DNA of 60,999 nucleotides, counting the filler, from Globobulimina sp. (Eukaryota): assembly GCA_003354225.1 (NCBI GenBank). It is 17 parts of 17 records of this genome, joined end to end, with 100 filler letters (N's around TTAATTAATTAA, not from the genome) between each part and the next. Parts side by side here need not be neighbours in the genome. Positions count along the whole stretch, not along the records: positions 57,510 to 60,999 come from PIVH01002678.1; 16 more parts are not named here. One strand, given 5' to 3'. The notes below the pieces were generated by a model. The model did no database searches. It had not been told where the DNA came from and saw only the letters and a program-made list of their open reading frames with translations. Every line of letters starts with the position of its first letter. The first letter of the stretch is position 1. The translations under genes were made by a program, and so were the position numbers. Shown piece by piece: positions 3,498 through 60,915 of the stretch.

Positions 3498-3597
3498 NNN
3501 NNNNNNNNNNNNNNNNNNNNNNNNNNNNNNNNNNNNNNNNNTTAATTAATTAANNNNNNNNNNNNNNNNNNNNNNNNNNNNNNNNNNNNNNNNNNNN
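3498..3597. other. Artificial contig linker (44N-TTAATTAATTAA-44N), first of 16
   Basis: Identical six-frame-stop linkers start at 3498, 7095, 10692, 14288, 17884, 21479, 25074, 28669, 32263, 35857, 39451, 43044, 46637, 50229, 53820 and 57410; intervening contig lengths decrease from 3497 to 3490. Confidence 0.99.
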
Positions 3598-4146: not shown

Positions 4147-4866
4147 ATGTTTATATTAGCAAAATGCGTGACTGACGGAAGGATTGTTGATGTCTAACCT
4201 CGAAAATGAAAATTTGAAGTTGAGACTGGAAATAACTTAGATTTCACATTTGATGTTGATATTTTCGAACTTTTTTTTTGCACAATTTTCACGATCGGAA
4301 TGCAAGAAATAAAGAATTGATTACAGATAATAAAATATGTAAAGATTTCTTCACAATCAAAGAAATCTGAGAATAAAGTCAGAAATGAAAAATCAAGAGA
4401 AAAAAAAAGAAATTTCTCAAAACAACAAAAATATACTATGTAATAATGAGGCTGTGGTTTGACAGTAACATGATAACCACACAAACACTGGAAAGAAATA
4501 AATATAAAAACAAATCAAATTTTGATGAAATGAATGTAGAACCAAGGCATCACTGAATGTATCTTTGTGACCTTAATTTCGCTGTATTTTAAATAGAATA
4601 TTTTTTCCAATCTGCAAATGCGCAAAATAAAATACTTTTAACTGAATAGTTTTACCAATTTAAAGTTATTTTGAACCCCTCCCCATCTATGTTTGGGTAC
4701 AATAACTCGGAATGTCAGCTTCTTCTTCATTTTGTGATATTTTGATTGTTTTGGTAAAAGGGAGGATCTGACGTTGTTTGTCATTGTAAGTATTTGGAAA
4801 TAATGGTCGAGCTGTTTTTTCTGTAAGATGTACAAATATAAAACTCACAGTTTTTGACTGCTACTC

Positions 4867-6936
4867 ATGGAACATAATAGAGCCGTTAGTTTACCAGCTT
4901 TTAAATATAAACTGCACGATTTACAGTTAGAGCTACAGTTTGCAACAAGCACATCAACGATCAAACATTTACCAAAATATATATCGCCAAATACTCCAGG
5001 ATTGGGCCTAAAAAGCTGTCATAATGACGAGTGTAAAGATGATTATAAAGATGCATATTCCAAAGCTGCTCTGCCACCCACAAATACGAATGACCTCAAT
5101 GAAGGGGAAAAACCAGAAACACCTTTCATTCAAATCTGTTTATTATGGTCGAATGTATTAATATTTACATTGTCCGTTTTATCTGCAATAATCTCTGTTA
5201 TATTGAGAACAGTACCAATTGAATTACCTTGTTTTATGCTATTTGTTTGCGCCATCTCTGGATTAATATTTACATATTCATATAAAACAAATATGATCAA
5301 AATATCTACATTAAAACGCATAGTGTTACAATACGTTTCCAAACAAAAATTAGAAGGAACAGTCACTCGGATCTCTCCAAAAACGGACACGAAAAATACA
5401 GACATGAATCCCGAAGGAATGGAGCAAATATCATTACTATCCAGTTTTCGTAGAGGCGATTTCCATAAACAATTAGCAATCTGTTCGACCAAAGACCTTA
5501 AACAATTATTGCCTGTCGTGTTGAGTAATATATGTTGTACTTTTCAAGTTTTATAATCAATCAAAAACGCTCTGAATTACATTTACAGAGCGCAGTCGCT
5601 ATGCCAATTACCTTTCGGTTTAACTGAGTTCAGATCGGCGTTGTTTGTCATTCTTGCTCATGTATGTTATGCGTATGTTTAATATTAATGCAAGGCAACA
5701 AAACAAACACATTACAGAGGATCAGTAAGGACGCAACATTGGATCAAACATGGCGGTTTTTCTTAAACTCCAACCGTGACATACCAGATATTGTACGTAT
5801 ATGGGAAGACCATGAATATTTTCAAAGTGAAGATGCTGTGCAGGGTCAACACGAGAATATGGATGATGTTATGGCATGCGATACGGATTTAAATTCTGTA
5901 CTGTTTTTTCGATCATTATTTACAGATTTAAATAAAATCGGATCCAAAAAACATATTCCTGGCACACAACTCATTTATGATCCAATTAATGGACAGAAAT
6001 TAGTTCAAGTGCAGTTAAAAAGGATTATGCCCTCCAACGCTAAGCCATATTTGCTGGACTGTTATACCGCAGATAGAGAGATAAATACATCTGATAATTT
6101 GGATGAGATGCACAGAAATCCAAAATGGAGCTCAACTATACTTCTTAAATCTGGTTATTTTTTATTTTTTTTAATTTCAGAAACAAAAACGTTTCTTAAA
6201 ATATGACATTTAATAATATTTAGGTAACGACTTAAGAAAAGATTTGGGGGTTCAGCTAATGTTTAAATTCATGAATGAAGTGTGGAAGGAAAGTTGTCTA
6301 AATTATCACGGACAACAATGTGAGACTTTAGTCTATAGAGTAGTGCCCATGTCAGTTGATTTTGGTGCGATTGAATTTGTTGAAGGAGCTACAAAGATCT
6401 CCAACATTGATTCTGTAATTATGGACATTCATAGCAGTGATCAATTAAAGATAACAATGGATAATTTAATAGCGACCGGCGCCGCTTCATATGTTGCTTC
6501 GTTCATATTAGGTGTTAGAGACCGACATCATGACAACATTTTAGTTTGTAATGATGGTCGAGTATTCAATATAGATTTTTCACATATTTTGGGTGAAAAA
6601 TTAGGTGGTTTGGATGCAGCAAAGATAGCTATTCCACATCGGTTTGTGAAGGTGCTTGGAAACGAGAATTGGAACAGATTTATTGAAGTCGCAGTTTTGT
6701 GTTTTAATGTTTTGAGGAAGAATTATTTTCAGTTATTAGATTTTGCAAGAATTGTATTTGCATTTATGAAAACTACAGAGGAAAATGAGAGATATTTAAA
6801 GCGCAGTTTGATGATTGATAGCGATGATATGGAGTCTTTGAAGAAAATACGAGCAAAATTCGGTCAAGCTCCTTCTAAGTTATCTACAAAAATGAAAAAC
6901 ACTATTCATACATTAGCTGTTATGGGAAGAAACTAA
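4867..6936 (+). CDS. Phosphoinositide 3/4-kinase family protein with two N-terminal TM helices; introns 5520-5588, 5662-5717, 6154-6223
   Basis: Three GT-AG introns join the ORFs in frame, giving LLPVVAQSL (helical-domain-like), MPSNAKP, LLKSGNDLRKD (cf. FKxGDDLRQD), GAIEFV, LGVRDRHHDN and IDFSHILG. Confidence 0.88.
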
Positions 6937-7194
6937 TCCTTTTGATGTACTCGTTCAGTTTGTGTGTGTTCCTTTCGTTTGTTATATATTTAGCTTTTTT
7001 TTTGCTATATTATTTTTATAATTAGTATATTTCCCATCGCTATTGATAAAAAAATGTGTGTCAAAGAGCATCCGGTTTTCAACGTCAGATTATTNNNNNN
7101 NNNNNNNNNNNNNNNNNNNNNNNNNNNNNNNNNNNNNNTTAATTAATTAANNNNNNNNNNNNNNNNNNNNNNNNNNNNNNNNNNNNNNNNNNNN

Positions 7195-9425
7195 TTACTC
7201 CAAAAAAGCAATGATTGATGGTTTAATCCAAAAATATAAAAAAAAGCAGTCATCAAAGGCAAAAAAAAAGAAAAACGGCATTATTAAAGCAATTCAAACC
7301 AAAAAACGTAAATCATTAAAATTAAGATCAAATCGCGAAAAGTTATTAAAGTTATATCAAACTGCAGATGAAAGCGAGCATTTTTTTGAATTTGTAATGG
7401 AAAACAGTGATAAGTTCGTGTTGTCTGTAATTGATATTATTTTGGACAAAACCGCCGTTAGCAAAGACGAAGACGCATTGAGCACAATGCTATTCCATCA
7501 ATTTCGAAATGATGCCAGATTTTGGTTTGATTTAAAAGCTTCCATTCAAAACACATTAAAACGCAGATTATTGAATGGGATCACTGCATTGGATGGCACG
7601 GATAAAGTAGCAATTTTAGCGCATATTATTGCAGTTATTGCCTCATTTGAAGAATGGAATGAACTCATTCCACACTTAACAGATTTAAATAGCGGCAAAC
7701 AAACGAAATTAAAAATATTGGCGATGATTGCTGGATGGATTCCTGATCGATTCGAAGTGCATACTCTACAAATTGCAAATGCCATTTATGCCGAAACACT
7801 GAACATTGATGAAAGTAACATCGATTCCCATGAATCCGCCTCTTTGTTTAGGATAATATCTGCGGTCTGTTCCCATCGGAATATTGAGGATGTTAAAAGT
7901 TTACGTCGGACAGTATGAAGAATTAAAGTTATTTGACACCAGTTTCGGTAACGACACAAATATAAACAAATCCGTATGGAACTTACTTATTTTGCATATC
8001 AATGCACATCAATCCTATGACACAGCTGATACATGTTTCCGTTTATTGTGTCAACTTTATTTTGTGCATTTTGATGCAATTCCAGCCCAATTGCATGAGG
8101 ATATATTTTTTCTTTTAAATGTGTTTTTAACAATGAATGCTGAAAAGATGGAAGCTGGCTTTATTCGATTTGCTGAAGACCGGCAAGATTGGGATGAGGA
8201 TCAACATCATTTTGCAATGATTTCACAGTTTGTATTTGGAATCTTGTCTGAAATGCAAAATAAAAAAGATTCAGTAAACTTTGATTATTATAGCATTGTT
8301 AATTGCAATTTGATTGAACATATTGTCCGTAACATAGATTATGACATTATACATGAAGAGGTATATGCCATTTGGCTGCATTTATTGAACGAATTGGATG
8401 TGCGTCATTTTTGGCATCAGAAATCTTTGTTGGTGCCATTGTTGCAACAGAAACACCCCAGTTCTACGTACGATGATTGTAAGCAGCTCAAAGATAAGTT
8501 ATATGAACAAGAATGGTTTGCAGTTAATTGGTTTATTCGTAATAATTATTCCAAATTATATGATGAAATTACTGTTCCTGTCACGCAAATTGTGTTGAAA
8601 TATTTATCTGAATATGCATCGATTGATATTGTTAGAAGAGAGTGTGACGATTACTTTGCAAGAATGGCAGCAAAACAAAATGCAAATGTATTACAAGAGA
8701 GTGTAGAATCTGTCATAGAGGCATTGCGGAGCACATTTCCAGACACCATTATAAAGGAAATATGTTCACATTTATCATATACTGAATCGAGTATGGAAGA
8801 AGAAATAATGTCCAATTATATTTTAGCACCGATACTGGATCAAGTTGTTCCGTGTATTGTTATTTCCACGCTCAAAGATAAAACATATGAGGTTTTTAAT
8901 TATAATTTGGCATCGATTCAGTTCAAATTGGGTTGGTTTGCTTGCGTTGATGATAAAAATAAGTGGCCAAAAGATGGGAAATATTGTGTTTGTGTCCAGG
9001 AATTTGATATTGAAAAACCTTTGGAACCAAATAATGCCAAAAAGGAAATATTGTTTAAATCTGATTTATTTACAATCACAACGCAAGATTATGAAACATG
9101 TAAATTGGATAATATCAATTTAAAATTGAAGAATGGAGCATTTTATTTAGTTTATATCATGGAAATGGATCCAAGTTTGGATGGAGGAATTAATGAAGTT
9201 TATGCAGAAAATAATACGGATTATTCGGTTAAAGCAGAAAATGACTTGTATGCAAACCAAGAGAGTGTGTTTTGGAAAAAATCGATTGCTTTGCCATGTA
9301 CACATATGGATAAAAGATCGGATATGTTAATGACGACATTTCTGTATTATAACATCACAAAACAGGAATATCATAATAACCAAAAATATTCTGCATTGTA
9401 TGCTATTACATTTAATTGTGTTTAA
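7195..9425 (+). CDS. Importin-beta/karyopherin-like HEAT-repeat protein with a +1 frame discontinuity at ~7857-7928
   Basis: WFDLKASIQNTLKRRLL...AHIIAVIASFEEWNELIPHL resembles the importin-beta N-terminal HEAT pattern. ORFs 7211-7918 and 7884-9425 overlap in adjacent frames. Confidence 0.55.
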
Positions 9426-9546
9426 TTAAATTAAAGCTTAATTTTATTGTTTATTTCTAATCTGCGATCTTAATTTGCGATATAATCTCATTTTGCCATG
9501 AAGTGGATATAACACTCAACTTCAAAAACAAAATCATTTCCAAACC

Positions 9547-10691
9547 ATGGCAACATTTGCAACAGTCATTTTATTTACATTAATAACAATCATGATTATG
9601 GCACAAAAACCTGCTACAAAACCTCCCAACAAAGGTGGAGGTAAACCAAATAAACCTGGTGATAATAATAAAGAATATACAAAATATCCAACATCTCCAC
9701 CAACTCCTATGCCAACTAAAAAAATTAAAAAACCCACACTGCCGTCATTACCGTCTTTAATATCCTTACCAAACATATATATGAATCCAGAAACAACTAT
9801 ACCTTCACCAAACGATCAAGTATAAAATTTAATCCCTTCCAACTTTAATATACCAATTGTGAAATCCCTGTATTGTATTTTAAATAAAGTGTTGTTCGGA
9901 GGACTGCTGTGTATCATTAACATATTCTCGTTCTGTTGCCAAAAAAGAGGGGTTGTTGCCTCAATTACTGTTACAAAGCAATGGCAGCGGCTATTTTTGT
10001 GAAAATATGGAGATAGTCACCACAGGCAACTGCGACATTGATTTTATTGTATTTCCGCTGTCGTCACATTGCAATCTGCAGCAAACCGTGTATAATATGC
10101 GATGGGTGACACAGTCAGAGGATGCAATTGGTTATCAACGGGCTGTTGTTGAAAACGATATTGTTACATTAAATAACGCGGAAATGCTTTATATGGATCC
10201 GAATGATGCCAGAAATCCAATTCATGGCTTTGATGCGCTGAGGTTTCCTGTAATTCCAAATCAACAAATTTCAATGTGTACATTGCTTGGATTTGGCGAT
10301 ATTGTGCAGAGCATAAATGGCAAAGCAATACATATTGGATACATGGGAGCAAACAATGGATTTGCGTGTCATAACGCCACTGTGAGAGATATATGTTCTG
10401 TTTCAGTTGATGTTGATGTTGATGTTGATGCTATATTTGATGCTGAGGCAACATATGATGCAAAAGAACATGTTAATTTTAAATTTGATGAGGATACATC
10501 GCCGGAGCAGTTTGGACATGGATACATCAATAGATATGTTATAATGATATTGATTGCATGCTGTGTTGCAATAATTGAATGTTTTATTGTGTTTATATGT
10601 TACCAAAGGAAAAGAGTTGATGTTGATAGGAATAATATTGTTGATGTACAAGTACATAATTGTACTGATTATGCAGATGACGAAGACGAAT
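9547..10691 (+). CDS. Type I membrane/cell-surface protein (signal peptide, Pro/Thr-rich stalk, Cys-containing ectodomain, one TM); intron 9820-9889; 3'-truncated
   Basis: Hydrophobic N-terminus and PTSPPTPMPT stalk; a 70-nt GT..AG intron joins the two ORFs in frame (NDQ|CCSEDCC); TM YVIMILIACCVAIIECFIVFIC is followed by QRKR. Confidence 0.75.
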
Positions 10692-50228: not shown

Positions 50229-50455
50229 NNNNNNNNNNNNNNNNNNNNNNNNNNNNNNNNNNNNNNNNNNNNTTAATTAATTAANNNNNNNNNNNNNNNN
50301 NNNNNNNNNNNNNNNNNNNNNNNNNNNNAGATCCAACGAAAATAACAACTTCCTGTACGTCGAGATTCGTGTTTTCTAACAATTAAATCTGTTCCGCAAA
50401 GTTGGCAAACACCATACACAGTTGTGAAAATGCTGAAGTTGTCGAGTTTTAAATA

Positions 50456-52414
50456 ATGGCTGACCCTGAATACGAAAATAAATATGATATCTTTGACGGC
50501 CTTGCAATGGATATGAAACAACCTGCAAAATCCATTGAATCGTTATTGGCATTATTTATGGACAAATACGCAGCGAAGACGCCAGATAATAATGCACAAA
50601 CTTTATACGATTTCAATGAAAAATTCACTGAGATATTGTCGTTATTATCAAGTGATGATAGCTATTGCATTTTAAATAGATATTATAAATCAGCAAATTA
50701 CAAAGAAATTACTCCATTGAAAGCTTGTTTAATTGGAATGCATTTATTCTCTCAAAATGCATCTGCATACACTGACAGACAACAGATATTCAATGAATAC
50801 TGGCGATTATTGCTATTATTTTGTAACAATGGCTCAAATCCAGCAATAGCACAAAGTCAATTTGATTATAATAATGAAGAATATTCATTTGAAACGCTAT
50901 GCAATTATTTATTAACATCACTGTACAACTTAATGTCGGATGAGGCTGAAATAATTAATCGATACATGTTTATAATGACATTTGGAACAGAAAAAAATAC
51001 AAAAAACCCAACCCGCTTTGATCCAGCAATATTTTCTGTGGAATATGTGCAATATGCCACCTCTTCAAATATTAATATTAATGTCACATTATGTGGCGGT
51101 GCATTTGTATCGCCCTTATTTGGATTTAATGCAAATGATAAATTGAAACAACTTCAATCCCCGTTAACTATTTATCAGTTATTGCAGAATGGATATGTTT
51201 TAATGGAAAATAATTCATCGGATCGCAAAGTATCGACACTTATTCACGAATTATTTATAAACAATAGCAACAAAGAATGGATCTCATACGGACATAATTC
51301 AACATTTATTTTATATTTATGGATTTTAAAGAATATTTATAAAGAATTTAGAAACGGTTATCAGCATTTATTGAATCAATGCTTCATTGCAATGACACAA
51401 AAACAATTCAAAGATGAAGAACTATCATTTGATATATTTTATTGTATCATGGATTTTGCCATTGGAGACTTTGCTGTTTTGCTGAATGATATTAACAATG
51501 AATTCTTTTGTAAATATTGTATGAAATATTTCCCGGCCATTCCGAAAAAATTTCAGTTTTGGTGTATTAATTTTGTTTTAAACAAATTATCAGATAAAAA
51601 TTTAGAAGTTTTGAAAGAAGCTACAAAGAATTATTCCGATTCGTGGCCCAAATTATTTTCAACAAAGTATGGAAACAATAAAAGTGATAGAAATATATTG
51701 TTATATTTATTGAAGTTATATAAAGGAGAATTTATAAATGGTAGAAATGCGAATGATTTTAGGGTTTTGTTGCAGAGACAATGTGGGAATGATGAAATTA
51801 TTGAGATTTTAATGGCAAATAAACTTCAAAAATTGATGATAAATAAAAGGTTATTGGTTGAATTATGGATGGAGAATAATAATAATTTGAGTGATAAGAG
51901 TTTAATGATAATTTTAGATGCGATATATGATGAAATTAATAGTGATTCGTATGATGAATGCAAATTAGGTTTATGCGCGACATTAACCGCAGGATTTGGA
52001 GTTCTTTGTAGTGATAAATTAGTAAATGCCAATTCAAAGCATTGTGTCTGGCATCGACTATGTATTATATTGTCAAATAAATATCAAAACAGGAAAAAAT
52101 GGATTGATTTGAGTGCGATTTTAGATAAAATATTTGAAAATAATCAAATGATACAATTTTTAATGAACAAACAATTATTAAATATAGATGACTGTTTTAA
52201 AGATATTTATAAATTAAAAAGAGCTTTGCTGCAAAAAAGCGATGATGAATATTATATTTTGAAAATAATCTTAAATTATTTGATGGAACAATCAGGTCAA
52301 ACATATAAGGAACAATTAAAATTGATTTGCATCGAGAATGAAAAAATTGCAATGAACATTCAAAACAAACCGAGATGTTCTCGATGTTTCAAAACATGTG
52401 CTTCTGTCTTGTAA
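50456..52414 (+). CDS. Hypothetical alpha-helical protein (652 aa)
   Basis: Long uninterrupted ATG-started ORF; no family recognised. Confidence 0.75.
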   Translation: MADPEYENKYDIFDGLAMDMKQPAKSIESLLALFMDKYAAKTPDNNAQTLYDFNEKFTEILSLLSSDDSYCILNRYYKSANYKEITPLKACLIGMHLFSQNASAYTDRQQIFNEYWRLLLLFCNNGSNPAIAQSQFDYNNEEYSFETLCNYLLTSLYNLMSDEAEIINRYMFIMTFGTEKNTKNPTRFDPAIFSVEYVQYATSSNININVTLCGGAFVSPLFGFNANDKLKQLQSPLTIYQLLQNGYVLMENNSSDRKVSTLIHELFINNSNKEWISYGHNSTFILYLWILKNIYKEFRNGYQHLLNQCFIAMTQKQFKDEELSFDIFYCIMDFAIGDFAVLLNDINNEFFCKYCMKYFPAIPKKFQFWCINFVLNKLSDKNLEVLKEATKNYSDSWPKLFSTKYGNNKSDRNILLYLLKLYKGEFINGRNANDFRVLLQRQCGNDEIIEILMANKLQKLMINKRLLVELWMENNNNLSDKSLMIILDAIYDEINSDSYDECKLGLCATLTAGFGVLCSDKLVNANSKHCVWHRLCIILSNKYQNRKKWIDLSAILDKIFENNQMIQFLMNKQLLNIDDCFKDIYKLKRALLQKSDDEYYILKIILNYLMEQSGQTYKEQLKLICIENEKIAMNIQNKPRCSRCFKTCASVL

Positions 52415-52483
52415 TGTAATCAATATTTAGCTGTCAATTTTTTCAGTCTTGGATACGAATTACGAAAACATTAGTAAAGATTT

Positions 52484-53356
52484 ATGATGGCAACGTTATT
52501 GCGTCAGTCACTTCGGACATACACCAATTCAACTCCAAAACAATCAAAATTCCAATTTTCCAAACAATTTGAGGATTTATGTTATAAACATCTATTAGTT
52601 GGACAACATAAACAACAGTCATGCCGTAATTGGTTATTTGACAAAGCAGATGCCACAAATTGGAAAATATCATTACCTGAACAAACATTTAAATTGCATT
52701 CTGATGTGGATACTGCACTGACTGTCCCATTGCAAATATTTGGAACCTATTCAAAAGAAACTAAATCATTTTTGTTTGCAAATCATAATAAAGAATTACT
52801 GGAAAAGCACCCAATGGTAATTTCAAAAATAAATCAACTGAAAAATAAATTTACGGAAATAAATGAATTCCAACAGATAATCATTGAAGATTGCGATGAA
52901 AACCTACCATATATTTTTGCTTCACTTATGATATCGTTGTTAAATATCGACGGATATTATGTTGGGTCTTATCCATACAATAAACAGCAGCCCATTGTGT
53001 TTATTTTGATGGATGAATTACTAAAATATAGTGACTATAACGAAGAGGAGTATATCGGCACAGATATGTCTGAGTTGATAACTACGTGGGATTTCACATT
53101 TAAATTTATGTGCAAGCAATGCGGATTGCATTTAAATGACAACATGACCATCTTTGAGAATTTTTTTGCTCATTATAATATTAAATGCAATCGGGAGGAA
53201 AACGTAATAATCACTGATTTTAACAGTGGAGCTGCCATAATAGTCACCAGATTGACATTGGAGAGAAATATGTTTCATCTCAAAGATATTGATTTCGACG
53301 ATCAAAATGAGATTCGTAGGATAAATGGTATTGATTTTAGAGCTGATAATCAGTAG
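52484..53356 (+). CDS. DUF6882-like protein with putative mitochondrial presequence
   Basis: N-terminus MMATLLRQSLRTY (Arg/Ser/Thr-rich, no acidic residues); core W.ISLPEQTF...LQIFGTYSKETKSFLFANHN resembles the Q.LG(S/T).S....(T/S)WLWAWAN signature. Confidence 0.6.
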   Translation: MMATLLRQSLRTYTNSTPKQSKFQFSKQFEDLCYKHLLVGQHKQQSCRNWLFDKADATNWKISLPEQTFKLHSDVDTALTVPLQIFGTYSKETKSFLFANHNKELLEKHPMVISKINQLKNKFTEINEFQQIIIEDCDENLPYIFASLMISLLNIDGYYVGSYPYNKQQPIVFILMDELLKYSDYNEEEYIGTDMSELITTWDFTFKFMCKQCGLHLNDNMTIFENFFAHYNIKCNREENVIITDFNSGAAIIVTRLTLERNMFHLKDIDFDDQNEIRRINGIDFRADNQ

Positions 53357-53403
53357 ATTTTGACTTGTCTTGCTTTTTATAAAAAGATGTTTTTTCCTAA
53401 CTC

Positions 53404-53819
53404 ATGTTAAACAGTACAATCTCAACCAGTACAATGCAGGTTATCCAGCCGACAAACGCAGTGGATACGTTTATAACAACGCAAGGTGCGTTATTGATCG
53501 CATCCGGGGTTCTTATCGTGTTGCTACTCTGCATCATCATATGCCTCATTTGGAAATGTATCACTTTGGGCAATTTGGCTAAAATGCAAAATGATTTCAA
53601 AAGCAAGCAGATTGAAATGGAGACAATCATCAAAACTAAAAACGACAAAGCAAAATACAATCGCGTTGCGCTGAGAGATAAAGCAAACGAACCATTTCCA
53701 GCAAAACACAAACATGATTTTGTCATCAGTTCGCCCAAAATGATAAATATTGTGATAACACCAAAAGAAAACCATCATAGATCATTTGACTTTGAGGATG
53801 ATGAAGATTTTGCATTGAT
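53404..53819 (+). CDS. Small single-pass membrane protein, 3'-truncated
   Basis: Thr/Ser-rich N-terminus; TM ALLIASGVLIVLLLCIIICLIW. Confidence 0.6.
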
Positions 53820-57409: not shown

Positions 57410-57509
57410 NNNNNNNNNNNNNNNNNNNNNNNNNNNNNNNNNNNNNNNNNNNNTTAATTAATTAANNNNNNNNNNNNNNNNNNNNNNNNNNNNNNNNNNN
57501 NNNNNNNNN

Positions 57510-60500
57510 TTGACGTATTTATTCATAAACGTTTTTTGCAGATTTCCTGTTGGAATTGCTTCAATTTGACGCTTTCTACAAAATATACCATAATTCTGTC
57601 TGCATTGGAAATATGTTTGCCCTTTGATTGTACCATTATGATTTCCTAATTTATCACACAATTCAACACCAAATACATTCTCAGAACCAGATAAGAAATG
57701 TAATGGACCAATATATCGAATATATCCTTCACATTTTTTATGGATATTTACAAAGTCATTCAGTTTAAATTCAACTTTACTGTGCTGTTTCGGTATAAAT
57801 TTGCATTTTATATTCTTAAAACGAGTAAATATGCCATGCAATGCGTCACATTGAAAATATATCTCGTCATCTTTTGTGCCATTATTTAAGCCCAAGGCAT
57901 CATGTAATTCAATACCATAAATTACTTCATTTGCACTAAAAGCGGTTCTTCCGATAAATCGAATAAATCCCATACCTTTATTTTTCACCATTATTCGATC
58001 ATTGATCTGTAGCTGTTCTGTTGCAGTAATATCAATAACGTCAAATTCCGATGGATGGTCATCATTTTCTTTATGTTTAATATTGTTGGAAGAGGCAGCT
58101 GTGGATTGGATTAATTTTAATGATGATCTTCTTGTAAATATGCCATGTTTTGGTTGACATTTAAAATATTGTTTGCCTTTAATCATACCGTTATGAGTAC
58201 CATTTGCTTCATTCAATGCAACGCCATACATCAAACCATCTGTAAACGCGACATTGCCAATGAATCTTACAATGCCTTCACCTTTATTTATTACCATCAC
58301 TCGATGAGAAATATTGATTTCTGTATTTCCATCTGTTTTGTTTATTGTTTTTAGTCTATGAATGGCTGCAAATATTCCATATCCATCCTTACATTCAAAA
58401 TATTGCTGATTATCTTTTGTTCCATTATTTGTGCCAATTGGTTTAATTAATTCTATGCCAAATATTGGTGTTTGTTTAGTAAATTCGACATCGCCAACAA
58501 ACCTTATAATTCCCTCGCATTTACCAATCACTTTTACGTTGTCATTAATCTTAAACTCTTTTGATTTTCTATTCTCGCTCATTTCAAAATCATTGCATAT
58601 GGTCGGTGGATGTGTTATAAATATGTGATCGAAATCATATTCATTTTGTTGAGTATCTAATGAAGAAAATGAGAATAAATCGCCAATTTCAAATGTAATT
58701 TCACCAAAAACACGCTCCAATTGGCTCGAAATGCGATGGATTGTAATCCTATCAAATATGGAAATATTTTCTTTTTGTATATTAATTTGAAATGGTTCAT
58801 TCATATTTATTTTCTCACTCAATTTATGATTATTTAAATAGACACAAACCTTATCAATAAATGGGTTGTTTTCTTGACATTTTATATTTAGGTCTATATT
58901 GCCGTCAGTTTTTAATGATATAAATGGTCTGCAAACTGACGTTATTCTCGCATTAAATGTATCAATTTTGCCACCACGAATTGATAATAATAGCGAAGGG
59001 TACGGAGAGCCGGATTTTAAAACATTAAAACATTGGTCTTCCTTCAATATGACCCATTGAGGAGGCACTGTCCATTCACTCTCAATCAGGTCTTTTAATG
59101 TAATTTTGATATAAGCAAAGGGGATACTTTTTATTTCAAATTGGTTGCTCACTGTTGTTAAATCTATCTCTTTCTTTTCCTCCTTTTTCCCTCCGGCAAA
59201 CCATGCATTATCGTCAATAATTTTTAATAAATAAATAAAAATAAATGGGTAATTATCGATATTATTGTGCTTTTGCAATAAAATTAAATTTGGATTTCCA
59301 TTCTTATTTAAACATTCATTCCAATAAATATTGCATTTTTCAGTGTTACTTGTTGATGCAACTCTAGTTTGCCAGTATCTTTATTTGTAATTTTCGCAAC
59401 AAAAATGTACATATATTTACATATTGACTCAACTGAACTGCGATCCACATTGAATTTTGACGCAATATTTGCCAGGAATTACATTTGTTGCTTCATAAAC
59501 GTCCGCTTGTAGCATATATTCATGTTTTTCTTCAATTTCTGTATTTAATTCACTTTCATCAATGGCACTCATTTTTGTTTGTGCTTCTTTGCCCACATCA
59601 ACTAATTATAAATATTTGTTTATTGTATTAATTTAATAAATTATATTAAGTGTTTATTTAACTGTCATTGATTTGACATGAAATTGAAATTTGTCCGCGA
59701 TAACATGTCGCCTCAATAACATTTGTATTCATTTTATTTGCAATTTGTTTATTTTGTATTGGATGATATTTATTAAAATCAAAGTGTGATCCATACAAAT
59801 TATGCCATTTAATATTTGCAAAATCATTTATTTTATTATAATCTGTTACCAATCTGCATATTAATTTTTTTTGTCCGGAAATATTTTGAAATATAGAAAT
59901 TGTAATATTTTTTTGAAAATTTGGTAGTCTTAAAGGTAATAAGGTTTTCAAATTCCAATTAATGATTTCTTGATTATTTATATTTTGCATCTGTTTGGAT
60001 AACAATTTTTTATCTGAAAACTGTATCATTATCAAATATTTTTGTGTTTTTGATTTGTTCTGCGATATGTTTGACAAATATTTGCTTTGATGTACATTTA
60101 TAATCAATTGTTTATATTTGTATTCAATAAATGGTGGCAAAATAATATTATTCATATCATCTTCATTGTCGTTGCTTTGTTGAGATTTTGGATGAATATA
60201 TTTCTCATCATTTGGGGATAAAACAGAAATGGAACATTTTAGATATCCTTTAATTCCCTCAGATATTTGATTTGGATCAAACAAACCTGTCCATTGCTTA
60301 TAAATTTCATGATTTGTATTGGAATGAATGTACAATAAATCATATTCATAACAACCTATTACCTCATTACGAATGTAATTATTTGTGTCATGTAGCGATA
60401 TTTTGATTTTTTCTCGTGATAATTGATCGGATGTTAAATTCACTTTAAATATTAATATTTGATCAAAATATGGATTGAATGTTCTTTGTTTTTATGTGTG

Positions 60501-60915
60501 TGTTATGTAAATAAATGAAAAATACATTTTGTAGAAAATATGAAATTAACTTTTTCTGTTTATTTGTAGATAATTTGTGAGATAATATGTTGGCAGAACA
60601 AATGGGATCGCAGAAATTATCATTGTTGCTTGGTTTTAAGTCACGACATTCGATGATGTGTACGTAAATAGTAAATAATTCACCGGTTTGTCTGCTTGTT
60701 GGGATTAAATTTGGTAAAGCTCCAAATACATTTTTTAATTGTGATGGATTTAATTTCGATAATGATGCAACAAGAGAGTTTTGGTTGCCTTTTGAGTCTG
60801 TCATGTACTCGGTAAGCTCAATAGAAACAGAAAACGTTTTAGATGGTGTGTGCATTTTGGCCGACACTGCTAAACTTACACCAAAACATAACGAATTCAA
60901 GCGCACACACTCCAT
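57510..60915 (-). CDS. Ferlin-type C2/FerI protein fused to four tandem CAP-Gly domains; introns 60550-60484, 59662-59602, 59438-59379; 3'-truncated, 5' end uncertain
   Basis: Ferlin motifs FTIYVHIIECRDL..DP, TFNPYFDQ, IGCYEYDLLYIH...HEIYKQWTGL.DP...GIKGYLKCSISVL, NIILPP, WHNLYGS...MN...YRGQISIS. CAP-Gly x4: GIIRFVG...GIEL...GTNNG...YFEC...GIF. All three introns restore the frame. Confidence 0.88.

Follow-up and report, generated by a model that had tools for sequence, protein, structure and literature searches.

The window analyzed here, a 60,999-nucleotide (nt) stretch of DNA from a Globobulimina sp. genome assembly (GCA_003354225.1), consists of 17 unrelated contigs ordered by length from 3497 down to 3490 nt. 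Its last contig (57510-60999, 3490 nt) carries a gene on the minus strand in which a ferlin-type front end appears to be joined to an array of CAP-Gly domains (Table 1). We located three GT-AG introns of 67, 61, and 60 nt with a script, and their removal left a frame of 1052 codons that starts at an ATG at 60855 and stays open as far as the end of the contig, in DNA of 30% GC. The gene is truncated at the low end of the contig (57510) and possibly at the high end as well. An earlier interpretation made from the sequence alone (the sequence-only reading) had placed the same three introns and had put ferlin-type and CAP-Gly sequence in one frame on one contig. Both claims were borne out, with the contig being 57510-60999 only. 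It had also predicted that domain searches would return C2, FerI, and four copies of CAP_GLY, and Pfam matched C2, FerI, and four CAP_GLY stretches.

The front end of the spliced protein is ferlin-like. In exon 2, Pfam identified FerI with a score above the curated cut-off (E 5.6e-11), along with the second half of a C2 domain (profile positions 43-101, E 3.1e-5). Exon 2 aligned to human myoferlin residues 289-437 (E 1.5e-19), otoferlin (E 2.3e-15), and dysferlin residues 306-508 (E 7.4e-13), and the region aligned to myoferlin and dysferlin comprises the end of C2B, FerI, and C2C. FerI flanked by C2 sequence, together with these alignments, gives the N-terminal C2-FerI-C2 sandwich of the ferlin family and agrees with the ferlin-diagnostic C2B-FerI-C2C sequence that had been recognized earlier. 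An excerpt of Lek 2010 (PMC2923515) presents this module as the conserved lipid-binding core of ferlins, and states that almost all of them share FerB and a pair of C2 domains beside a C-terminal transmembrane helix.

The other end of the frame is occupied by CAP-Gly domains. Four stretches of exon 4 matched the CAP_GLY profile with E 2.4e-74 and 245.6 bits, compared with a Pfam cut-off of 26.5. We read their loops (Table 1) exactly as the sequence-only reading had. The last six residues encoded on the contig, FMNKYV, match 'LINKYVKVKKRGNGHVRFVG' in the related protein P0001 and 'FMNKYVYVLNKGNG' in P0018. Both of these sequences run into a CAP-Gly domain, and the six residues here are likely the start of a fifth copy.

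Two further regions, C2-like 3 and C2-like 4, lie between the ferlin part and the array. Exon 3 and the start of exon 4 have a C2-like strand pattern and a WNE motif, and C2-like 3 is conserved in P0009, P0018, and P0154. Exon 3 matched no Pfam family, and its C2 reading comes from the sequence pattern. The first 273 residues of exon 4 also matched no Pfam family. Against PDB sequences they gave no match as a single sequence and no ferlin or C2 match as a profile (alignment A3); the profile matched only CAP-Gly proteins (Restin/CLIP-170, CLIPR-59, and dynactin), and the CAP-Gly sequence in A3 was supplied only by the tails of P0018 and P0015. Aligning C2-like 3 to C2B, C2C, and C2-like 4 of the same protein with hhalign gave probabilities below 1%. 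An AlphaFold2 (AF2) model of the 273 residues, built from six sequences, had a mean predicted local distance difference test score (pLDDT) of 47, and its residues 1-156 (C2-like 3) were unreliable. A confident block with block-mean pLDDT of 72-86 covered most of model residues ~161-230 (C2-like 4). Matches in a fold search (VIA, 48,161 chains) covered model residues 156-261, and 32 of the 50 top rows were titled C2. The best match to C2-like 4 had a Z score of 7.9 and a root-mean-square deviation of 2.6 Å over 88 aligned residues. These matches are middling (Z below 8) yet consistent across the list, and we named the modeled block C2-like 4 as a probable C2 domain. The "further C2-like sequence" reported earlier holds for C2-like 4, which is backed by its fold, but is unconfirmed for C2-like 3.

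We evaluated the splice sites that join these parts. The two halves of a single C2 profile (positions 3-46 in exon 1 and 43-101 in exon 2) meet at intron 1, and the intron 1 splice is supported because they abut there. Conservation of exon 4 starts at its first codon, yet no methionine occurs before about residue 190; exon 4 must therefore be internal. Exon 3 is located 60 nt upstream of exon 4 in a compatible phase. The open reading frames (ORFs) of P0018 and P0009 start at the position of the intron 3 acceptor, with an R two residues before the conserved W, as for an AG/A acceptor. All three introns are alike in length (60-67 nt), in starting with GTT(A/C)A, and in having a GC content of 0.10-0.25, compared with 0.25-0.34 in the exons. 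GC content is an exon-like 0.38 in the 29 nt that follow the intron 2 acceptor and precede the ATG at 59572. On other contigs of the window, frame-keeping GT-AG pairs of 62-79 nt were available in 9 of 12 adjacent ORF pairs. These are unverified candidates, and they make the size of intron 2 plausible for this organism. The evidence demonstrates introns 1 and 3, as it does the domains, the frame, and the family described below. Intron 2, and hence one single polypeptide, we infer.

Table 1. Features of the ferlin/CAP-Gly gene and of the linker next to its contig (positions count along the window).
Feature	Position	Strand	Description
Exon 1	60551-60855	-	From ATG 60855; N-terminal stretch and first half of C2B; Pfam C2 positions 3-46, E 0.003
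Intron 1	60550-60484	-	67 nt, GT-AG, GTTAATTT...AAACAAAG, GC 0.19; splits C2B
Exon 2	59663-60483	-	Second half of C2B, FerI, and C2C
Intron 2	59662-59602	-	61 nt, GT-AG, GTTAAATA...ATAATTAG, GC 0.10; putative, weakest-supported splice
Exon 3	59439-59601	-	55 residues; linker and apparent first strands of C2-like 3; contains ATG 59572
Intron 3	59438-59379	-	60 nt, GT-AG, GTTCAGTT...AAATAAAG, GC 0.25
Exon 4	57510-59378	-	623 codons uninterrupted; rest of C2-like 3, C2-like 4, linker, CAP-Gly 1-4, start of probable fifth CAP-Gly
C2B	60279-60687	-	Residues 57-170 of the spliced protein, across intron 1; Pfam C2, ferlin alignment
FerI	60135-60278	-	Residues 171-218; Pfam
C2C	59673-60113	-	Residues 226-372, approximate limits; dysferlin alignment to residue 508
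C2-like 3	58970-59551	-	Residues 393-566, across intron 3; putative C2 from sequence pattern
C2-like 4	58592-58909	-	Residues 587-692; probable C2 from AF2 block and structural matches
CAP-Gly 1	58355-58549	-	Loop GTNNG
CAP-Gly 2	58115-58312	-	Loop GTHNG
CAP-Gly 3	57815-58009	-	Loop GLNNG
CAP-Gly 4	57566-57769	-	Loop GNHNG
Probable fifth CAP-Gly	57512-57529	-	First six residues, FMNKYV; cut by contig end
Artificial linker	57410-57509	none	N44-TTAATTAATTAA-N44; separates two unrelated contigs; not biology

Relatives place the gene in a family. An HMMER search with exon 4 returned 4218 proteins at E ≤ 0.001, and almost all of the 150 among the matches listed cover the CAP-Gly part only. When we compared spliced residues 1-705 with 153 collected proteins by BLASTP, six matched. 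The front of exon 4 is matched by P0016 (61% identity), by P0009 (45-46% over ~260 residues), and by P0018 (44-50%), which then continues into CAP-Gly sequence (Pfam E 1.9e-8). In P0015, from the MERC collection, the end of C2-like 4 leads into two CAP-Gly domains. An excerpt of the MERC report (bioRxiv 10.1101/386110) describes the collection as 775 marine eukaryotic metatranscriptomes assembled at the protein level. P0018 and P0015 therefore bring the C2-like/CAP-Gly junction to three independent sequences, one of which was built from RNA reads.

A second type of joining was found in P0013, a predicted protein of 534 residues from a 7848-nt contig. Its alignment with spliced residues 147-268 (E 3e-24) takes in the end of C2B, FerI, and the opening strands of C2C. 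Four CAP-Gly domains come next (Pfam E 3.4e-77), and a stretch that aligns to residues 276-301 of C2C at 69% identity follows them. The array is placed inside C2C, between the third strand and a conserved NW...LLPLR segment. By homology, P0013 is independent evidence that ferlin and CAP-Gly domains have been joined in this family. It starts and ends abruptly and is probably one uninterrupted ORF, in which case it would require no splice inference. A different picture came from P0005 (JGI, 734 aa), in which we found a FerI fragment only (56% identical) amid unrelated low-complexity sequence; this could reflect a decayed copy or an error in gene calling.

Among relatives that carry a species name, the nearest to the CAP-Gly part come from foraminifera: P0002, from Bolivina argentea (EukProt), and P0006, from Reticulomyxa filosa (ETO05945.1). 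They are consistent with the reticulopodial organism envisaged in the sequence-only reading. CAP_GLY occurred in 69 of the 71 best CAP-Gly relatives that we scanned, and neither FerI nor C2 was among the 25 of 31 families listed. The same was true of the other 79 relatives for the 25 of 33 families listed. The FerI match in P0013 (E 0.0018) falls just beyond the limit of this family scan. There are 21 CAP-Gly stretches in P0006 and 13 and 12 in two others, P0007 and P0012; these very large arrays point to a big CAP-Gly expansion in foraminifer-like organisms.

Broader searches added few relatives. A word-index protein search for near relatives of exon 4 returned four CAP-Gly proteins only, and the same kind of search for longer proteins with the FerI exon returned P0005 only. 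The part of exon 4 outside the CAP-Gly domains matched none of the longer proteins (1092-3115 aa) and gave no full-length relative, which is weak evidence. Locus searches of metagenome contigs (with A3 and P0005) and of genome contigs (with A3) gave no confirmed locus. The best score for P0013 in the ESM Atlas, 0.80, was under the meaningful level. In the full-text literature, we found no description of a ferlin with CAP-Gly domains, as the sequence-only reading had supposed. Publications matching both "ferlin" and "CAP-Gly", judged by title and start of abstract, included none on such a protein, and no match joined Reticulomyxa with CAP-Gly, foraminifera with ferlin, or CAP-Gly with a Hint domain. 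The kinds of domain are known and their combination is undescribed in the literature searched; we regard the gene as a new variant.

Relatives also suggest what follows the truncated array. P0001, which is 54% identical over CAP-Gly 2-4, continues through LINKYV into a fifth CAP-Gly domain and then into a Cys-led segment with T-A-D-H. P0029 (44% identical) consists of the cut tail of an N-terminal CAP-Gly domain, three full CAP-Gly domains, a basic linker, and a segment with G-C-L-H...T-S-N-H. Pfam assigned the P0001 segment to Intein_splicing (E 6.5e-4, 20 bits, below the cut-off of 35.8) and the P0029 segment to Hint (E 6.8e-5, 23 bits, below the cut-off of 29.7). Searching PDB with a profile of the two sequences gave six matches, of which five belong to the Hint superfamily (a bacterial intein-like domain, two inteins, and two Hedgehog proteins; E 0.3-1). 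Where the C-terminal C2 pair and anchor of a ferlin would be sought, the contig ends within the coding frame at 57510 and both relatives enter the Hint-like segment. Judging from their sequences, the protein encoded here probably continues into a fifth CAP-Gly domain and a Hint-like domain rather than a ferlin back end. A contig of 3678 nt is listed for P0001 as well as for P0016, and the two may be parts of one paralogous gene.

The start codon has an alternative. A further in-frame ATG lies upstream of 60855 at 60915, where the sequence-only reading had started the protein. Starting there (60856-60915, minus strand) adds MECVRLNSLCFGVSLAVSAK, a hydrophobic, signal-peptide-like leader of 20 residues that ends in V-S-A. 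A signal peptide would be compatible with a Hedgehog-like Hint protein and at odds with cytoplasmic roles for the ferlin and CAP-Gly domains. We also weighed and set aside another possible intron, of 63 nt (60879-60817, GTAAGT...GAG), in exon 1; its GC content is exon-like by eye, and it has no support.

We looked for the locus in sequencing runs. Four runs from two studies matched, none of them labelled as RNA: X1, X3, and X4 represent one sample, possibly the one that was assembled, and X2 belongs to the second study. Logan contigs of X1 tile 57822-60501. They contain all three introns with their flanks, and the X1 data are therefore DNA; one contig spans 59322-59460, the region of intron 3, unspliced. 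X2 contributed three pieces of 137-251 nt (58441-58577, 58923-59073, and 60577-60827), each with 0-4 mismatches. The contigs of X4 matched nothing at this locus. No joints were reported in the contigs of the four runs, all of which carry neither strand nor splice information. The reads demonstrate no transcript and are compatible with a mosaic of paralogues. The contigs of X1 and X3 differ from the window at 58631, 58664, and 58667, around C2-like 4 and the linker. These differences could be an allele or low-depth consensus errors.

The remaining 16 contigs of the window encode no relatives of the ferlin or CAP-Gly parts. The GC content is ~0.29-0.32 on the contig at 57510-60999 and 0.24-0.37 on the rest of the window. 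Linkers identical to the one in Table 1 occur at 3498-3597, 7095-7194, and so on, and anything that spans a linker is an artefact. On contigs 2, 3, 7, 13, 14, and 15 (for example, 50453-53817, 4858-6933, and 7196-10690) we observed runs of same-strand ORFs with gaps of ~50-80 nt. With their frame-keeping GT-AG candidates of 62-79 nt, these runs look like multi-exon genes with short introns.

Our interpretation is that the locus holds a foraminifer-like gene of a small lineage-specific family, encoding a ferlin C2-FerI-C2 module, C2-like domains, and a diverged CAP-Gly array, and that its product is a membrane-microtubule adaptor. We give this reading a probability of about 0.6. Several observations weigh against it and have to be set beside three other explanations. 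No RNA run matched the locus among the four found, and we saw no spliced junction. C2-like 3 was not confirmed as a C2 domain by Pfam, by PDB sequences, by AF2, or by hhalign. The uninterrupted ORF of P0013, itself a prediction, is no more than probable. The Hint end is known from relatives only, under the Pfam thresholds. The ferlin and CAP-Gly parts could also belong to two adjacent genes on the same strand, with a C2-FerI-C2 gene ending at a stop codon at 59660-59658 and a C2-like and CAP-Gly gene starting at the ATG at 59572. The stop is two codons past the intron 2 donor, the ATG has a good, A-rich context 30 nt past the acceptor, and the junction is crossed by no homologue that we found and by no RNA in the runs searched. 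We estimate that a frame-compatible GT-AG pair is expected by chance in an AT-rich gap of 85 nt. However, a gap of ~85 nt would need to hold both a 3' end and a promoter. GC content is 0.10 exactly between the splice sites and 0.38 in the 29 nt before the ATG, and the stretch resembles introns 1 and 3 both in length and in 5' motif. The presence in P0013 of a ferlin module joined to CAP-Gly arrays makes a chance adjacency at 85 nt unlikely, and we consider the two-gene arrangement improbable. The claim of one polypeptide made by the sequence-only reading survives to the extent that a single frame, once spliced, holds both the ferlin front end and the CAP-Gly array, but intron 2 could be a gap between genes. 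Alternatively, the joining could have arisen during assembly, from low-coverage reads of paralogous or unrelated loci, so that the two parts would not be contiguous. Word depth in X1 is only ~4-10, its Logan contigs break every few hundred bases, and there are several paralogues in the family. The X1 data are interrupted by a hole at 59220-59258 and by 10 missing nt at 60214-60223, and the assembly graph branches into loose ends at 58928, 59161, 59351, and 59460; with such depth, the hole and the loose ends make a mosaic of paralogues possible. On the other hand, P0009, P0018, and P0154 align unbroken through the hole and past three of the four loose ends (residues 440-582); the one point left over is the boundary of exon 3 and intron 3. 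The X1 contigs include every intron and its flanks as DNA, and the local structure would be the same in any paralogue with these 30-mers. A mosaic is therefore very unlikely in our judgment.

The last explanation accepts the fusion and denies its link between microtubules and membrane fusion. The CAP-Gly domains would bind some other ligand or act as spacers, and the protein would be one of many shuffled architectures. In canonical CAP-Gly proteins, the lysine of GKNDG contacts the EEY/F tail. Other matches have this lysine in at least 184 of 280 copies of the motif, the four loops here in none, which makes the binding to EEY/F tails assumed in the sequence-only reading unsafe. CAP-Gly domains are also promiscuous. 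Their partners among the 150 relatives include ankyrin (15/71 and 16/79), EF-hand, PARP, SRCR, kinase, PDZ, and CH, so CAP-Gly is much shuffled among these matches, and the R. filosa protein carries its 21 stretches. Finally, FerB, DysF, Ferlin_C, and a membrane anchor are absent from every exon by Pfam on a contig that ends inside the frame, and the C-terminal C2 pair was likewise not found there. Against this explanation stand the strong fit to the CAP_GLY profile, the retention of GKHNG or GKNNG in some CAP-Gly copies of the same-family relatives P0001, P0013, and P0015, and the C2-FerI-C2 module, which an excerpt of Lek 2010 (PMC2923515) gives as the conserved lipid-binding core of ferlins. 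We think it somewhat unlikely that the fusion is real and without such a link.

We compared the protein with known systems. It resembles the ferlins (myoferlin, dysferlin, and otoferlin, and the ferlin-like proteins of apicomplexans) in its homologous N-terminal C2-FerI-C2 sandwich and its multiple further C2-like domains. Ferlins have been studied as calcium-dependent proteins of membrane fusion and repair that are anchored through a C-terminal helix. Unlike in ferlins, the C2 domains here are followed by CAP-Gly domains, the available sequence lacks FerB, FerA, DysF, the C-terminal C2 pair, and the anchor, and relatives of the gene end in a Hint-like domain. A canonical role in ferlin-type vesicle fusion, as proposed at first, is not supported by the present sequence: the back end is absent from the contig, and P0001 and P0029 enter a Hint-like domain.

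CAP-Gly proteins have been studied as binders of microtubule ends and tubulin tails. The gene shares with CLIP-170, p150Glued, and CLIPR-59 the tandem arrangement of CAP-Gly domains, which are strong profile matches here. It differs from these linker proteins in the number of CAP-Gly domains (four or more, probably five), in the absence of the GKNDG lysine from the four that are complete, and in having neither a coiled coil nor a zinc knuckle. CLIPR-59 is a membrane-bound CAP-Gly protein and for that reason the nearest functional analogue; membrane contact in the protein described here would be made through C2 domains instead of a lipidated tail. Hedgehog/Hog and intein-like Hint proteins resemble P0001 and P0029, where a Cys-led segment carrying T-x-x-H comes after the array and matches Hint and Intein_splicing profiles and Hint-superfamily structures. 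In contrast to true Hint proteins, these matches are weak and cover only the first half of the domain, none lies on the contig here, and the N-terminal cargo consists of cytoplasmic-type domains, where Hedgehog is secreted.

In the adaptor model, the C2 domains would hold a phospholipid membrane (of a vesicle, an organelle, or the cell surface), as the homologous ferlin module does. The multivalent array of four or five CAP-Gly domains would hold tubulin or a tubulin-associated or microtubule partner with high avidity, and membranes would thereby be tethered to microtubules. The Hint end would cleave itself off, and a lipid adduct left behind is speculation. All of these binding activities are predicted from sequence. 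The coupling of membranes to microtubules that was suggested earlier gains from the fusions seen in several sequences (P0013, P0018, and P0015), but it is weakened by the missing GKNDG lysine and the missing ferlin back end. A bolder version of the model, which we regard as a long shot, holds that these genes are anchor-less foraminiferal ferlins. The half that carries the tail anchor would have been replaced by the CAP-Gly array and a self-cleaving Hint domain, perhaps leaving a Hedgehog-like adduct of sterol type, with cassettes inserted more than once (as in P0013, where the array lies in a C2C loop). Such a protein would serve reticulopodial transport as a clutch between membranes and microtubules, lipid-anchored and regulated through its C2 domains.

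To our knowledge, the molecular parts of foraminiferal pseudopodial networks are largely undescribed. Coupling of membranes to microtubules is central to these very fast, microtubule-based networks, and a natural protein with a ferlin lipid-binding core and a CAP-Gly array would be a ready-made candidate for it. The C2-FerI-C2 module appears to be usable apart from the canonical ferlin back end, and a CAP-Gly array appears to be tolerated within a C2 domain, as in P0013. Both points bear on ferlin domains as units. The Hint end, if true, would add self-processing to a scaffold of cytoplasmic type. At present, the value of the finding is that of a specific, testable lead, drawn from sequence analysis of a truncated gene in a low-coverage assembly, to how foraminifera may link their membranes to microtubules.

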